Positions 54,149-58,627 of a stretch of DNA of 64,000 bases are shown here, piece by piece. How positions within the stretch are numbered: the first letter of the stretch is position 1; every line of letters starts with the position of its first letter. Under the pieces are notes generated by a model. It had not been told where the DNA came from and searched no databases. It saw nothing but the letters and a program-made list of their open reading frames with translations. A program made the position numbers and the translations under genes. The DNA is from an uncultured Lawsonia sp. Lineage in GTDB: Bacteria > Desulfobacterota > Desulfovibrionia > Desulfovibrionales > Desulfovibrionaceae. Location: assembly GCA_964538355.1 (NCBI GenBank), contig CAZIFC010000007.1, forward strand, positions 5,924-69,923, written 5' to 3'.

Positions 54149-57100
54149 TTAGTGAATAGGAATGCCCTCAGTAATTTGATCAACAACAAAATCGATATTC
54201 TTATCCCCTTCTATCATAAATCTTCTGATTAAATCATTACGATACCAAGGGACGGTACGGAAAGAGTTGCTACCTCGCACAAAGGCGTACGGATATGGCC
54301 TAGTCAAGTTGGCAGTTTTTACATAGTGTAGGCAGGCCGCTCCTCTTAGCCGTGTTTCCGCATCGGGTTGAGGAAAAGACGGAGAGGTGAGGAGCTGGGT
54401 ATAGTCCTCTCTACTTTTGGGGAATATGGCATTGAAAGGCACCTGATCATACCCAGCATGGGACATCACTGCGCAAGGGACATCGAGAGCAGACAATTCC
54501 CACGCAGCAGTTCCCAGCCAGAGAACTGCCAAATCCATGATGCCTATGAGGGATTGCAGCGTCATTTCCTGTGGGTTGATATACAGGACATTGGGCGGAA
54601 ATTCGCGGGGCAAGACATCGCGCAATGTCTGTCTGGCACGAACCGAGGCAGTGGGGTTGCTTTCATGAGGATGAGGGCGAATCAGCACGATAATGTTGGG
54701 ATTGCTGACCGCTACCTCGATGGAATGGCGCAACCAGTCGCAGATATCCTCGTGGGCGGGACCACCTAGCTTATGTTCGGCTTGGTCAAAAAGTAGTCTG
54801 CCAATGCAGCAGATGATGCGCTTGCTCTTGGCCTTTTGTTCCCGTAGGTAGTCTAATGTTTCGTTATGTGTCACGATCACATCCGCCAGTAAATTCTGGC
54901 GTATCTGTTCCAGTGCGGCAAGGAATTTTGGAGAATTCCGTTCTTTGGTATACCATGGTTCAAAGCGGCTTCTCGTAGGGAGGAAAGAAAGACGGCAGTC
55001 GGGCCAGAGCGTCATATCGAGTCCTGAAACCCGTGTGCTTATGTCCGAACGGGAGTGAACAAGATCGTAATTGGCCACATTTTTATAATAGATAAAATGA
55101 ACAAGATTACATCCCTTTTCTGCAAGATATCTGCGTAGAGCTGACTCTGGCAGGTTATAGGCGAACTGACTCATTACTGCGATTTTTGGTGGCCTGTGCA
55201 TATCTTCTAACTGTCGACACAGGGCATGTATCCATGCAACTACACTGTCAGTCCTCTTCAGCAACCGTCTGAACTGCCGCTGTATGTCGGGACTCTCCCA
55301 ATCGAATTCGTATCGCCGGACAAGAATGGTGATGGCCTCAAAAAAACAGCCATAGAAATTGACGCCCACAGCCTCGATGCGCTTGCTGTCGTAATCCAGC
55401 GTCCATTCAAGTTGAAGTGTCCCCGATGTGTGCGGAAGGGCATAGGCAAACTTTGCTAGGGGGTGGAAGAGCGGAACATTCAAAGGAATATGGTTATTGA
55501 ACATAGGCCACACAGCGTAACCACGTTTACGCAGGGTGTATAGCACTACGGGGAGGATGGCTGAAAAGAAAGTGCCATAGTTTCCGAAAAAAATAATACC
55601 TTTTGGATGGTTGATAGTAGGAGCGTTGTTGACAATGGCCGCACTCTCCAAGTAATGACGGTAAATACTGATATCGTTCCCTCGGGCAAGTTTTGAGACG
55701 AATGGAACGGTACTATCGTTCCTCTGAAGATGTGCCTGAAGGTTCCCCTTTAGCATATTTACGCGCCATTTCTTGGCGCGTTGTCCTCGTAGGTTGTCTT
55801 TTTGCGCAGCAAGCTTTTGTTTATCCCATATTGGGCAGGCGATATTTCTGGGTAGAAGTGAAGCCTCTAGAATATACGCGAGTTCTTGCTCAAGGTTTTC
55901 TCGTAGCATATTCACGACCAGAAGCACCATATCGTACTCATCTTTGCCCATGCCTTCACGGCTGTTTCCATCTGCAATTTCCTGTGCAAGCTCACGCATG
56001 CGGACGCGGTTTTCCTTCAGGCTCTCGTGCATGAACATGACGAAGAGCTCGGAAAAATCCTTACACCCCTTGGCGATACGCGCTTTCCTATACAAATCGA
56101 AGAATATTAGGCGCATCTCGACATGCTTTTCAATGCATGTTTCCTTAATTTCAGAACGCCTGTTGTTGTATAGAGAAAAAAGCAGTTCGGCATACCATTC
56201 GGGCGTGCAGCTGGCCGCATCGTCATTGACTAACCTTCTAAGCTCGTCATACGCGAAGCACATAATGAGTATTCTGGTGTAATAGAGTAAAGCTCTACTG
56301 CGTGGCTTGAAGCTAACGGGAAGCCGGAGCACTGGTGGATGGGAATCATGAAACCAATTTTTGATAACTGAGTCATGATAAACTTTATAATAATATATGA
56401 TGTCCTTATCGCTCAGGACGCCAAGCCTTCCAAACCATCCTGAAGATTGATGCAGGATATAATCGAGTTGTTCATAGTTGAGCTGGTAGTAAGCCTGTAA
56501 TATGAGTGCATAGAATACGCTTATTGCTTTGTATATCGGAAAAAGCGATAGGAACTCCGAAAGCTTCGGCATCTGTATGGAAAGAGAGAGCATGTCGGCC
56601 ATGATATGCCCGAATATGGATGTTCTCAGGTGTTCATCGATGATAGGATCTATGTCTGGCTCGTTATGGAAGCTGACGCGCATGTCAAGGACGCCAAAAC
56701 GGCTATCAGGCTGGAATATTTCTTGGATGGCTTCGTAAAAACGACCGAGGTCGGGACGCTGGCGCGTATACCAGAAGGCCAGCGCGGACTGTGGAGTAAT
56801 GCGCTCAAAGGAATACGGTGCCATGTACGAAGTGCTTAAAAACGATGCGAGTACAAACTGTTTTCTAGTTAAAGACCTCGGTCGTTCATGGATGAAAGTA
56901 TCTTCTGTGAGTCCCCAGCCCGTGTACCATGCCGGAGTGTACGCTACGGTATGCTTTCCCCGGAGGATGGCTTCTACCCCCTGAGAGACACCGTGCACAT
57001 GTACGGAGCGGGCACCTTCCAGATAGTCGTCAATGTCGGCGAGATGTTTCAACAGGACGCAACGCCGCTTGATTGATGTCGGGAGGTCAGGCTGGGCAAT

Positions 57101-58627
57101 CACGGTATAGCCGCTCAATGCTAGGGCAAGGATTTTACCCTCCTGTTCCTTTTTAGCGACCGATAGGATAAACTGATTAAAGGAAAGGCCGTCCAGATGA
57201 TTTTGCCAGATGGCGAGGATCGTAGTCTTGCCGTAATCTTTAATCTTTCTGCCAGAAGCCTCCAACGTCGCCCCGTACAGAATAGCCTGAAACTTTTGTA
57301 GTTCTTGAAGAAAATATTCTACTTTTTCAAGCTCCTGAGAAGAATTCAACTTGTCGCCGTGTCTCTGCACGAACGAGAGCATCTGCATATCCCGGACTGC
57401 ATCAACATTCCTGCGCCCTCTAACTTGGGTCAACCACAACGGGGAGGGATAACTCTTCCTCCAACCGTAGCTGCTGAGCACGGATTCACAGAAATGAAGA
57501 ACGGGAAGGGAGTTGCGGGCTGCGGTCTCGCGTACCTGTTTTGGTACGTTGTCCCCCACCCAGACAACGGTACAATCGCGCAACAGATTGATGGCGGTGT
57601 GAAACGTGCTGGTCTTGAGAGAAAACACATGATAAGTCCTCAATTTATCCGCAAGCATGCTTGTGTTTTTCATATTGAGTAGCACAGCTCTGGGCGCATT
57701 GGGGAACGGGGGATTCGGGGTTATTGGGGTAAGCAGAAGTTGTCTTATCAGCTCCTTGGAAAGGGGACTTAGCATCACCCCCGCTTCCTCCAAGCAAGAA
57801 AGCAGGTTTTTCGGCACGGTATCCAGCTCGGGTGCCAGACAGCACGCTACCTTGACGTGGAGTAGTATATGGCGCAGGCACGCCTCGTTCATGTCCTCAG
57901 ACGGCAGCATAACGATGTTGTCGAGCTTGGCTACGTCCGCTACGTCACACATGAATTTGCGGGAGTGGTGCAGTATCAGGATAAATTTTTCTGCATCACC
58001 ATGCCCTGTGTCCGTGAAAAATAGGGCAGGAAAAAATTTTGCCGTCCGGGCAACATCTATCTTGCCTATGATGCTACTGAAGGAAGAGGCATTGCCTATC
58101 GCAAGGATGGGAATATTTTTTGTGCGAAAGAATTCCCTTGTCGTAGGCGGAATTTGCTTTGTCCTTCCAGAAGGTAAGAGAATAAGCCGTGGCTTAACTA
58201 TACAAAGAAAAACACACTGAACAAAGGATGGGGTATTAGTATAGGCAGCCGCGCAGAGTTCCCCTATTTTTGAAGAAAGAATTTTTTTTCGCTCATCCAT
58301 ACTAAGGCCAAAAATAACGATGCGGGGTAGTGTTCCTTTTGCCATGGCCCTAGGCTGCATATGCATGGCAAGGATGAAATAGCGATGCAGAAATGAACAA
58401 CGTGCAAAAAAAATTGCTAGTTTGAAAAGCACCGTCAGTTTGACCTTCTTCCAGAGTGCCCTCCCGGAGAGGCGTCGCCCGAACAGGGGGGATTTCTTCC
58501 GAATTTGTAGGGAATAAGCACCATTCACAATCGCTTTTTTTATGGAACACAAAATTTTTATAAACATACCCGTAAATAACTCTCGTTTTCCGACGGCCTT
58601 TTTGCGATAGAGTGACCTTAGAGTCAT
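54149..58627 (-). CDS. 1492-aa multi-domain capsule glycosyltransferase-like protein
   Basis: Internal KpsC-like segment (SQGVEAILRGK, AWYTGWGLTED, RSLT) and a C-terminal GT-B-like region with IRPHP; tightly coupled to its neighbours. Confidence 0.7.
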   Translation of the reverse strand: MTLRSLYRKKAVGKRELFTGMFIKILCSIKKAIVNGAYSLQIRKKSPLFGRRLSGRALWKKVKLTVLFKLAIFFARCSFLHRYFILAMHMQPRAMAKGTLPRIVIFGLSMDERKKILSSKIGELCAAAYTNTPSFVQCVFLCIVKPRLILLPSGRTKQIPPTTREFFRTKNIPILAIGNASSFSSIIGKIDVARTAKFFPALFFTDTGHGDAEKFILILHHSRKFMCDVADVAKLDNIVMLPSEDMNEACLRHILLHVKVACCLAPELDTVPKNLLSCLEEAGVMLSPLSKELIRQLLLTPITPNPPFPNAPRAVLLNMKNTSMLADKLRTYHVFSLKTSTFHTAINLLRDCTVVWVGDNVPKQVRETAARNSLPVLHFCESVLSSYGWRKSYPSPLWLTQVRGRRNVDAVRDMQMLSFVQRHGDKLNSSQELEKVEYFLQELQKFQAILYGATLEASGRKIKDYGKTTILAIWQNHLDGLSFNQFILSVAKKEQEGKILALALSGYTVIAQPDLPTSIKRRCVLLKHLADIDDYLEGARSVHVHGVSQGVEAILRGKHTVAYTPAWYTGWGLTEDTFIHERPRSLTRKQFVLASFLSTSYMAPYSFERITPQSALAFWYTRQRPDLGRFYEAIQEIFQPDSRFGVLDMRVSFHNEPDIDPIIDEHLRTSIFGHIMADMLSLSIQMPKLSEFLSLFPIYKAISVFYALILQAYYQLNYEQLDYILHQSSGWFGRLGVLSDKDIIYYYKVYHDSVIKNWFHDSHPPVLRLPVSFKPRSRALLYYTRILIMCFAYDELRRLVNDDAASCTPEWYAELLFSLYNNRRSEIKETCIEKHVEMRLIFFDLYRKARIAKGCKDFSELFVMFMHESLKENRVRMRELAQEIADGNSREGMGKDEYDMVLLVVNMLRENLEQELAYILEASLLPRNIACPIWDKQKLAAQKDNLRGQRAKKWRVNMLKGNLQAHLQRNDSTVPFVSKLARGNDISIYRHYLESAAIVNNAPTINHPKGIIFFGNYGTFFSAILPVVLYTLRKRGYAVWPMFNNHIPLNVPLFHPLAKFAYALPHTSGTLQLEWTLDYDSKRIEAVGVNFYGCFFEAITILVRRYEFDWESPDIQRQFRRLLKRTDSVVAWIHALCRQLEDMHRPPKIAVMSQFAYNLPESALRRYLAEKGCNLVHFIYYKNVANYDLVHSRSDISTRVSGLDMTLWPDCRLSFLPTRSRFEPWYTKERNSPKFLAALEQIRQNLLADVIVTHNETLDYLREQKAKSKRIICCIGRLLFDQAEHKLGGPAHEDICDWLRHSIEVAVSNPNIIVLIRPHPHESNPTASVRARQTLRDVLPREFPPNVLYINPQEMTLQSLIGIMDLAVLWLGTAAWELSALDVPCAVMSHAGYDQVPFNAIFPKSREDYTQLLTSPSFPQPDAETRLRGAACLHYVKTANLTRPYPYAFVRGSNSFRTVPWYRNDLIRRFMIEGDKNIDFVVDQITEGIPIH

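Follow-up and report, generated by a model that had tools for sequence, protein, structure and literature searches.

A giant protein of a predicted legionaminic acid capsule island joins a degenerate KpsC-like module to a putative CMP-sugar transferase domain of the GT-B fold

Results

Layout of the giant gene and its product

The stretch analysed here, referred to as the window, comprises 64 kb of contig C7 (positions 5924-69923), and an additional 13 kb of the contig past the window end was also read. The subject of this report is a giant gene located within a capsule island of this window, a single open reading frame (ORF) of 1492 codons at 54149-58627, as a first-pass annotation made from the letters alone had described it; the strand, which had not been stated then, is the minus strand. 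The first ATG of the ORF lies 4 nt past the stop codon of an upstream AMP-ligase gene. The homologues and also the gene call P0002 from the same contig (1472 aa, 100% identical) all begin at the residue equivalent to M21. Translation therefore probably starts at M21 (nt 58567), which would yield a product of 1472 aa. Two AlphaFold models were obtained, one covering residues 21-1000 (predicted local distance difference test, pLDDT, 88.4) and one covering residues 985-1492 (pLDDT 92.2; predicted template modelling score, pTM, 0.92). The protein has five parts, which are a leader, an unassigned alpha/beta domain, a KpsC-like module, an all-helical region and a GT-B domain. These parts and the motifs discussed below are as follows:

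54149-58627, minus strand: whole ORF, 1492 codons plus stop; probable start at nt 58567
58376-58567, minus strand: leader, residues 21-84 (sequence and AlphaFold model)
57698-58375, minus strand: N-terminal alpha/beta domain, residues 85-310 (AlphaFold model; Pfam and hhalign negative)
56753-57697, minus strand: KpsC-like (GT107-fold) module, residues 311-625 (PF05159, hhalign, Foldseek)
57191-57205, minus strand: QNHLD, residues 475-479 (literal motif; alignments)
55676-56752, minus strand: all-helical region, residues 626-984 (DSSP on the AlphaFold model)
54152-55675, minus strand: C-terminal GT-B domain of 508 aa, residues 985-1492 (AlphaFold, Foldseek, profile search)
55337-55339, minus strand: E1097, invariant Glu of [Y/F]E (76-sequence alignment)
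54785-54802, minus strand: GRLLFD, residues 1276-1281 (phmmer and hhalign alignments)
54662-54682, minus strand: IRPHPHE, residues 1316-1322 (76-sequence alignment, phmmer, hhalign)
54497-54514, minus strand: GTAAWE, residues 1372-1377 (family alignment)

At the deepest split of the subfamily, identity amounts to 52% in the C-terminal domain (C-domain), 33-35% in the middle module and 20-30% in the remainder, so that the C-domain is the most conserved part of the protein. A megablast search of E. coli genomes gave no match to the gene.

The C-terminal domain is modelled as a GT-B fold and carries invariant Asp and His-Pro motifs

The AlphaFold model of the C-domain displays a GT-B fold, which is the outcome of a check that the first-pass annotation had proposed. 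The Foldseek matches of the domain were UDP-GlcNAc 2-epimerases (WecB), KpsC, TagF/TarL, UGT51, Bcs3 and Cps3D with E-values of about 1e-6 to 5e-4, and those to KpsC (probability 1.0, E 2e-6) had the best template modelling (TM) scores of the list, 0.46-0.49 on target. No Pfam, NCBIfam or PDB family covers the domain, the only NCBIfam match being a weak one to NF046086, and a PDB profile search with the C-domain returned only chance matches to nitric oxide synthase (E 0.04 and above), which were discarded. That these resources all miss the domain supports the earlier idea of an unclassified glycosyltransferase (GT) family. When 1.84 billion representative proteins were searched with a profile, 1024 clusters passed E<1e-3 and 201 passed E<1e-30; in these the domain is nearly always C-terminal in proteins of 800-1600 aa. 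The few named members are called 'hypothetical' or 'TPR repeat protein' (TPR, tetratricopeptide repeat), and a Salinivibrio protein (P0056) also belongs to the family. When 40 relatives were scanned, a Capsule_synth domain was found in 14, TPR in 5 and a family match to the C-domain in none.

In an alignment of 76 sequences, reaching down to about 21% identity, residues E1097, D1281, G1289, W1298, P1318, H1319, P1320, E1322 and G1372 are invariant and E1377 is nearly so, and the family consensus at the GTAAWE segment reads NGTSxLE. The IRPHP and GTAAWE segments reported earlier for this domain were located at residues 1316-1320 and 1372-1377. A C-domain profile of 121 sequences was compared by hhalign with profiles of KpsC-N, KpsC-C and KpsS, which gave probabilities of 78, 71 and 51%, respectively. 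In all three hhalign runs, and in a phmmer alignment with KpsC (6mgd), R1277 falls on the Gln and D1281 on the Asp of the KpsC QxxxD motif, and H1319-P1320 falls on the HP that binds cytidine monophosphate (CMP) in KpsC-N, KpsC-C and KpsS. This placement of the invariant HP supports the earlier reading of the domain as CMP-sugar-transferase-like. The putative QxxxD equivalent of the C-domain is [R/K]xxxD, with R in the subfamily, mostly K in the wider family, and an invariant Asp. E1097 belongs to the N-terminal Rossmann half and might serve as the general base, by analogy with the YE general base described for GT118 and GT140 (PMC12887879).

The weak match to NF046086 covers about 70 residues from HP to GTAAWE and scores 16-18.4 bits on the window protein against a cut-off of 200; the same model matched 9/9 close members of the C-domain family at E<=1 (best E 2.5e-5), again in the HP-to-GTAAWE region.

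The middle module is a KpsC homologue with degenerate catalytic motifs

A degenerate KpsC-like domain had been claimed for residues of about 300-590, and this was confirmed by several types of comparison. PF05159 matched residues 519-585 with 25.6 bits against a cut-off of 20, covering just 66/310 profile positions, and phmmer with the protein matched KpsC structures. Using KpsC-N and KpsC-C profiles made from 60-70 loci, hhalign aligned residues 351-625 with the KpsC modules at 99.7-99.8% probability (E 1e-26 to 1e-28). The top seven Foldseek matches of the model of residues 21-1000 were all KpsC (6mgd, 8fuw, 6mgc and 6mgb among them; target-normalised TM 0.52-0.65), followed by WbbB (GT99) and KrkA (GT140). 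By profile homology and modelled fold, residues 311-625 are a true KpsC/GT107 homologue.

In the hhalign alignment, Q475 of the QNHLD segment coincides with the Gln of the KpsC QxxxD motif, and gaps fill the nine KpsC columns that follow, that of the nucleophile Asp among them, as they do the KpsC KPHPD segment with its HP. Within residues 300-640 there is no K-x-H-P, confirming the earlier remark that KxHP is missing from the KpsC-like part, and no [KR][PT]HP occurs upstream of the C-domain in the subfamily. The QNHLD that had been taken for a kept QxxxD motif is present at residues 475-479, but it is not a retained functional motif, as relatives with 65-72% identity have G, S or K instead of D479 (QSCRG, QNCLG, QNIPK); a conserved nucleophile Asp is missing from the module. 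In GT99, GT107 and GT140, the conserved elements for catalysis or CMP binding are the HP and, within QxxxD, the Asp and the Gln; of these, HP and the Asp bind CMP and form a covalent adduct (PMC12887879). Since HP and the QxxxD Asp have been lost, the middle module is probably catalytically dead and would represent a pseudo-enzyme or a binding module. The invariant H528 (KHLAD) was considered as a displaced HP histidine and dropped, because in the profile alignment it lies downstream of the HP gap, where the KpsC 'dAdii' region begins.

The family shows no variation in the KpsC signature segments WYTGWGLT(ED) and GWRKSY..PLW, which speaks for the module having kept a function other than catalysis, and the identity of the module among the close relatives P0003-P0012 is 59-70%. 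The module may bind, non-catalytically, the linker made of 3-deoxy-D-manno-oct-2-ulosonate (Kdo) or the Kps machinery. Relatives of about 1300 aa keep Y[RK]PHPD and GQxxxD in their KpsC-like module, and because such an apparently active module is retained there, the loss of the catalytic motifs in the window protein looks secondary.

Leader, N-terminal domain and helical region

The leader (residues 21-84) is composed of a basic stretch followed by a hydrophobic/amphipathic helix (KVKLTVLFKLAIFFARCSFLHRYFILAM); the AlphaFold model has low confidence at residues 21-55 and shows a helix at 56-85, and the leader may serve in membrane association. In residues 85-310, strands and helices alternate in the model, with pLDDT mostly 81-97 per 10-residue block, and no Pfam match was obtained at E<5. 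The possibility that this domain is a third KpsC-like or C-domain-like half was rejected, as hhalign comparisons with KpsC, KpsS and the C-domain gave probabilities of <2%. The domain is restricted to the subfamily of about 1460 aa, is missing in the relatives of about 1300 aa, and shows 20-22% identity at the deepest split of the family; in P0009 (1733 aa) it is tandemly duplicated.

The long helical stretch that had been noticed after the KpsC-like part is evident in the model, where DSSP assigns only helices across about residues 612-999. A Pfam search of residues 626-984, TPR families included, gave no match, and in 5/40 relatives scanned TPR families occupy the position of this region. 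The helical region might act as a scaffold, as TPR domains do in other capsule polymerases.

The capsule island and its sugar pathway

From 44.9 kb up to the end of the window, every gene is on the minus strand. The order of the island is integrase, relaxase/primase, kpsF, kpsM, kpsT, a gene in the KpsE position, kpsD, kdsA and a kdsB-HAD fusion, then a PtmE-like nucleotidyltransferase, CMP-nonulosonic acid (NulO) synthetase, a 300-aa unknown, a PglD-like N-acyltransferase, a FabG-type reductase, an acyl carrier protein (ACP) and the AMP-ligase, and then the giant gene, legB, legC, a neuB-type and a neuC-type gene, debris of an insertion sequence (IS), kpsC, kpsS and a second integrase. KpsE was assigned by position, a Pfam search having given no match. 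With kpsM/T, kpsE/D, kpsC/S and kpsF/kdsB together, the island is a complete ABC-transporter-dependent (group 2 type) capsule locus. The genes around the giant gene are:

53140-54189, minus strand: legB (TIGR04180, 517 bits; cut-off 475)
51982-53133, minus strand: legC (TIGR04181, 513 bits; cut-off 420)
50951-51979, minus strand: legI/neuB (TIGR03569, 474 bits; cut-off 400)
49623-50954, minus strand: legG/neuC (TIGR03568, 410 bits; cut-off 236)
58631-63998, minus strand: upstream block from the AMP-ligase to the PtmE-like nucleotidyltransferase, the latter running off the window
60041-60277, minus strand: ACP, 78 aa
61700-62602, minus strand: 300-aa ORF, family-less, with weak GDSL/SGNH hints (E 0.011)
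46116-48143, minus strand: kpsC, two modules, QxxxD and HP intact (PF05159, E 5e-100)
44890-46119, minus strand: kpsS, canonical (PF05159, E 2e-68)

As the models for LegB, LegC, NeuB-type and NeuC-type proteins all exceed their NCBIfam cut-offs, the sugar pathway is identified by sequence as that of legionaminic acid (Leg), in accordance with the earlier reading of the locus; the N-acyltransferase and the CMP-synthetase score under their equivalog cut-offs. Region 2 holds just the Leg pathway, the N-acylation block and the giant gene, with the 300-aa ORF as its sole unassigned ORF. Besides KpsS and KpsC, no other glycosyltransferase was found in the whole island (window and 13 kb beyond), and the giant gene, which had been called the only polymerase candidate in the visible part of the locus, is so in the entire island as well.

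The block of AMP-ligase, ACP, FabG-type reductase and PglD-like protein probably puts a hydroxyacyl (3-hydroxybutyryl-like) residue on the amino group of the sugar. The 300-aa ORF may encode an O-acetyl-transferase or an esterase for the polymer. It was rejected as a second transferase, given that there are weak GDSL hints only and no PDB relative, and also as a PtmF-type oxidoreductase, being unlike the GFO-type gene of locus L080.

The island possesses its own complete CMP-Kdo route, consisting of kpsF, kdsA and the kdsB-HAD phosphatase fusion (L152 1414-3455 and 8327-9349). The kpsF/kpsU pair typical of E. coli region 1 is less than this gene set. The segment at 48168-49600, between legG and kpsC, has a G+C content of 0.39 and contains fragments of transposase-like ORFs and an ORF for a hydrophobic protein of 99 aa; the legG ORF (443 aa) runs about 75 residues beyond the end of the NeuC model into this debris.

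With a G+C content of 0.48, the island differs from the first 32 kb of the window, which are at about 0.60. The island, of about 30 kb, is flanked by two tyrosine integrases, one at 42756-44015 (plus strand) and one past the window end in the region L152 9689-14134, where a relaxase/RepB-primase gene adjoins the integrase. Neither the 14 genomes from the same genus nor the 22 others from the same family that were compared contain the giant gene, and the GTDB species representatives include a single full-length relative, encoded in a metagenome-assembled genome of the Desulfovibrionaceae. The island looks like a horizontally acquired, mobilisable capsule island.

Genes for C-domain relatives are associated with nonulosonic acid pathways

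Synteny is preserved at 37% identity, the gene of such a relative being located between an AMP-ligase/ACP/short-chain dehydrogenase/reductase (SDR)/PglD block and legB/legC/neuB/neuC. The block found at 58631-61700 in the window also precedes the 37%-identical relative in L080. On one metagenome contig (L081), two paralogues of the giant gene (1-2619 and 10001-13240) occur in the same Leg-type locus.

C-domain relatives are also encoded in a freshwater kpsMTED locus with pseB, pseC, pseF, pseG, pseH and pseI, in a Leg locus where the protein bears a fused SASA domain, and on the chromid of Sinorhizobium americanum, directly upstream of pseB, pseC, pseF, pseG, pseI and an rkpRST-like exporter. 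Each lies beside a CMP-Leg or CMP-pseudaminic acid (Pse) pathway, the gene setting expected of the BFO_1060 family, on which NF046086 was built. P0048 (L083), a distant relative of the giant protein, carries a fused SASA (SGNH) domain. On plasmid C of S. americanum CCGM7, an unannotated 1360-aa relative at 833090-837169 (L150 11433-15515) combines a PF05159 match (E 8e-44) with the C-domain. The idea that the S. americanum relative is RkpY of the rkp-3 region was dropped, as S. meliloti Rm41 has the KpsC-like part only, matching residues 13-441 of the query.

Two C-domain peptide patterns yielded 66 metagenome loci with distant C-domain relatives, which were searched with the window proteins, and gene counts were compared between C-domain loci of at least 18 kb (n=22) and control kpsC loci of at least 18 kb (n=53):

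NeuB: C-domain loci 20/22, control kpsC loci 1/53
CMP-synthetase: C-domain loci 18/22, control kpsC loci 1/53
LegC/PseC-type aminotransferase: C-domain loci 18/22, control kpsC loci 0/53
4,6-dehydratase: C-domain loci 16/22, control kpsC loci 6/53
NeuC: C-domain loci 0/22, control kpsC loci 1/53

Kps exporter genes were present in 11 of the 22 C-domain loci. From the lack of NeuC it follows that most of these loci are of the pseudaminic acid type, and donor specificity would therefore have shifted within the family.

Discussion

Proposed function of the giant protein

We propose that the giant protein is the serotype-specific glycosyltransferase of an acquired group 2 capsule island, in which the C-domain is catalytic, uses a CMP-activated Leg derivative as donor, and both starts and extends a homopolymer, and we assign to this reading a probability of about 0.68. 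For donor, acceptor, processivity and the roles of the non-catalytic parts, we infer the following scheme. KpsS and KpsC would build a poly-Kdo linker on lipid, the giant protein would add N-acylated Leg from its CMP donor onto this linker and would then extend the chain to a homopolymer of N-acylated Leg, and the product would be exported via KpsMT-KpsE-KpsD. Priming and extension are both ascribed to the C-domain because the island holds no other sugar pathway and no GT beyond KpsS and KpsC.

In the putative active site, the invariant PHPxE segment would bind the CMP-activated Leg derivative, with HP holding the CMP, D1281 would serve as nucleophile, R1277 would hold the carboxylate in place of the Gln of the Kdo transferases, and E1097 would act as base in a [Y/F]E context akin to the YE of GT118 and GT140. 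The correspondence of the C-domain motifs with those of KpsC suggests a KpsC-like double-displacement mechanism. By this analogy a retaining mechanism is favoured at slightly above even odds, and a plausible alternative is that the same Asp and His serve an inverting reaction like that of sialyltransferases.

The multi-domain polymerase for a Leg capsule that the first-pass annotation had envisaged stands in so far as a Leg-capsule GT is supported; probably just the C-domain is active, so that the polypeptide would consist of one active transferase and non-catalytic modules, and polymerase activity is deduced from the content of the locus. A wider claim appears possible, although we consider it more doubtful than not, namely that the C-domain is a new GT family and the first known polymerase family for capsules of 5,7-diamino nonulosonic acids (Leg or Pse), working through a KpsC-like covalent Asp with Arg/Lys in place of Gln, and that in this lineage a once active Kdo transferase module of the KpsC type became a dead one that reads the poly-Kdo linker, in a polypeptide that both primes and polymerises.

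Several observations weigh against the proposed function. The C-domain is a distant match to KpsC and KpsS (hhalign 51-78%, E 1e-4 to 1e-5), the TM-scores that Foldseek gives for it are low, at 0.2-0.33 on query and at most 0.49 on KpsC, and UDP-GlcNAc 2-epimerases and TagF equal KpsC in score. The QxxxD-like motif has R or K in place of Q, and NF046086 reaches 16-18 bits where its cut-off is 200. Activity of the C-domain is a prediction from sequence and model for every member of the family alike. The majority of the distant relatives are found in pseudaminic, not legionaminic, loci (NeuC 0/22), and the full CMP-Kdo pathway of the island leaves room for Kdo in the repeat unit. Furthermore, the choice between polymerisation and single addition turns solely on the island having no other transferase, and such an enzyme may be encoded elsewhere in the genome, which is a draft of 68 contigs.

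These last points bear on the best surviving alternative, in which the protein is a transition or priming transferase that adds one or a few Leg residues to poly-Kdo or caps it, with extension taking place elsewhere or no long polymer being made. Group 2 systems with transition transferases distinct from the polymerases have been described (PMC11666461), such a linker-proximal step would suit a dead KpsC-like module possibly binding the Kdo linker, and the draft state of the genome is compatible with it. On the other hand, no further transferase is encoded in the island, a self-contained, mobile unit with an integrase at either end, and the protein resembles capsule polymerases in its size, helical scaffold and fusion pattern. 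In the loci inspected, moreover, relatives recur as the sole large transferase beside NulO genes, although L082 also has an unassigned 962-aa ORF. We therefore consider a priming-only role unlikely.

Slightly less probable still is that both transferase-like modules are active, the middle one by means of non-canonical residues, giving two linkage types or a Kdo-Leg heteropolymer. The good conservation of the middle module among P0003-P0012 with its invariant signature segments, the complete CMP-Kdo pathway, and the fusion of an apparently active KpsC-like module to the same C-domain in the relatives of about 1300 aa would all agree with this. However, the HP segment and the Asp part of QxxxD are missing from the alignment with KpsC, D479 is variable even among close relatives, and it is precisely these two elements that bind CMP or form the covalent adduct in GT99, GT107 and GT140 (PMC12887879).

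It is improbable that the C-domain is another kind of GT-B enzyme, either a TagF-like phosphotransferase whose substrate is a CDP-activated alcohol, or an enzyme of epimerase-like or hydrolysing type whose substrate is a nucleotide sugar, for although its Foldseek top list mixes UDP-GlcNAc 2-epimerases, TagF, TarL, TagF-like multienzymes and KpsC at similar E-values, Pfam Glyphos_transf and Epimerase_2 are unmatched, CDP-glycerol or CDP-ribitol genes were not found in the island, the neighbouring Leg and Pse pathways are already complete, the motifs correspond to QxxxD and HP of CMP-ulosonate transferases, and the family tracks NeuB and CMP-synthetase genes.

If the C-domain acts as a Leg polymerase, as we propose, it would found a new CAZy family, allow Leg/Pse polymers to be made enzymatically for work on glycoconjugates and antibodies, provide an annotation handle for capsule typing, and offer a clear case of a GT module turned pseudo-enzyme inside a polymerase. 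The family, with about 1000 clusters, tracks NulO pathways in capsule loci of many bacteria, and a gut-type sulfate-reducer lineage (probably Desulfovibrionaceae) would be able to gain a sialic-acid-like capsule via a mobile island.

Comparison with known systems

To our knowledge, Leg/Pse transferases are scarce, the known ones being Maf flagellin enzymes, the Tannerella enzymes and KpsS1 (GT118). In the literature searched, no experimental work was found on the C-domain or on any Leg/Pse capsule polymerase.

KpsC (GT107; PF05159; 6mgb, 6mgc, 6mgd, 8fuw, 8fux) is the dual-module retaining beta-Kdo transferase of group 2 capsules. The C-domain shares with it the GT-B fold, the positions of [Q/R/K]xxxD and HP and the occurrence in ABC-transporter capsule loci. 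In contrast to a KpsC module, it is about 180 residues longer, is PF05159-negative, has R/K for Q and tracks Leg/Pse rather than Kdo pathways, and a canonical KpsC is encoded separately in the island.

NF046086 is built on BFO_1060, which is sequence-identical to the Leg-derivative transferase TFUB4_00887 of Tannerella forsythia, and knock-outs of TFUB4_00887 (Leg) and of Tanf_01245 (Pse) in T. forsythia lose the terminal nonulosonic acid (PMC5420450). These enzymes resemble the C-domain in their GT-B/TagB-like nature, in the HP motif and in the location of their genes beside CMP-Leg/CMP-Pse genes; they differ in being single-addition enzymes of 442-445 aa that act in protein O-glycosylation, without fused modules or capsule context.

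KpsS1 from Acinetobacter baumannii (GT118) is a retaining Pse5Ac7Ac transferase and KrkA (GT140) is the Kdo transferase of E. coli K13 (PMC12887879). Both are capsule transferases for ulosonic or nonulosonic acids and belong to the KpsC/KpsS/WbbB structural superfamily, with QxxxD, HP and YE (PMC12887879), to which xxxD, HP and [Y/F]E of the C-domain would correspond. The comparison of the C-domain with these two enzymes was made by description, and KrkA is among the weaker Foldseek matches of the N-terminal model.

Cps3D and Cps7D of Actinobacillus pleuropneumoniae and Bcs3 of Haemophilus influenzae b are likewise large polypeptides of group 2 systems that combine GT-B with helical/TPR regions, and the TPR/helical region is required there for elongation (PMC11666461). 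Structures of Cps3D and Bcs3 (8qoy, 8a0m) are among the Foldseek matches of the C-domain. The difference is that these polymerases join TagF-like phosphotransferase modules to GT-A/GT-B hexosyl modules and make teichoic-acid-like polymers.

The GT38 polysialyltransferases (NeuS, SiaD) are similar in being the sole region-2 transferase, in making a NulO homopolymer on a Kdo linker, and in GT-B fold and HP motif, and they differ in size, architecture and sugar. PF07388 (GT38) and PF04464 (TagF-like) were unmatched in the protein and in 40 relatives, and no GT38 structure was among the top 50 Foldseek matches. The giant protein is thus of a known kind, a putative GT-B CMP-ulosonate transferase in a group 2 capsule locus, in which the middle module is a degenerate GT107 homologue and the C-domain lies outside the named families tested.

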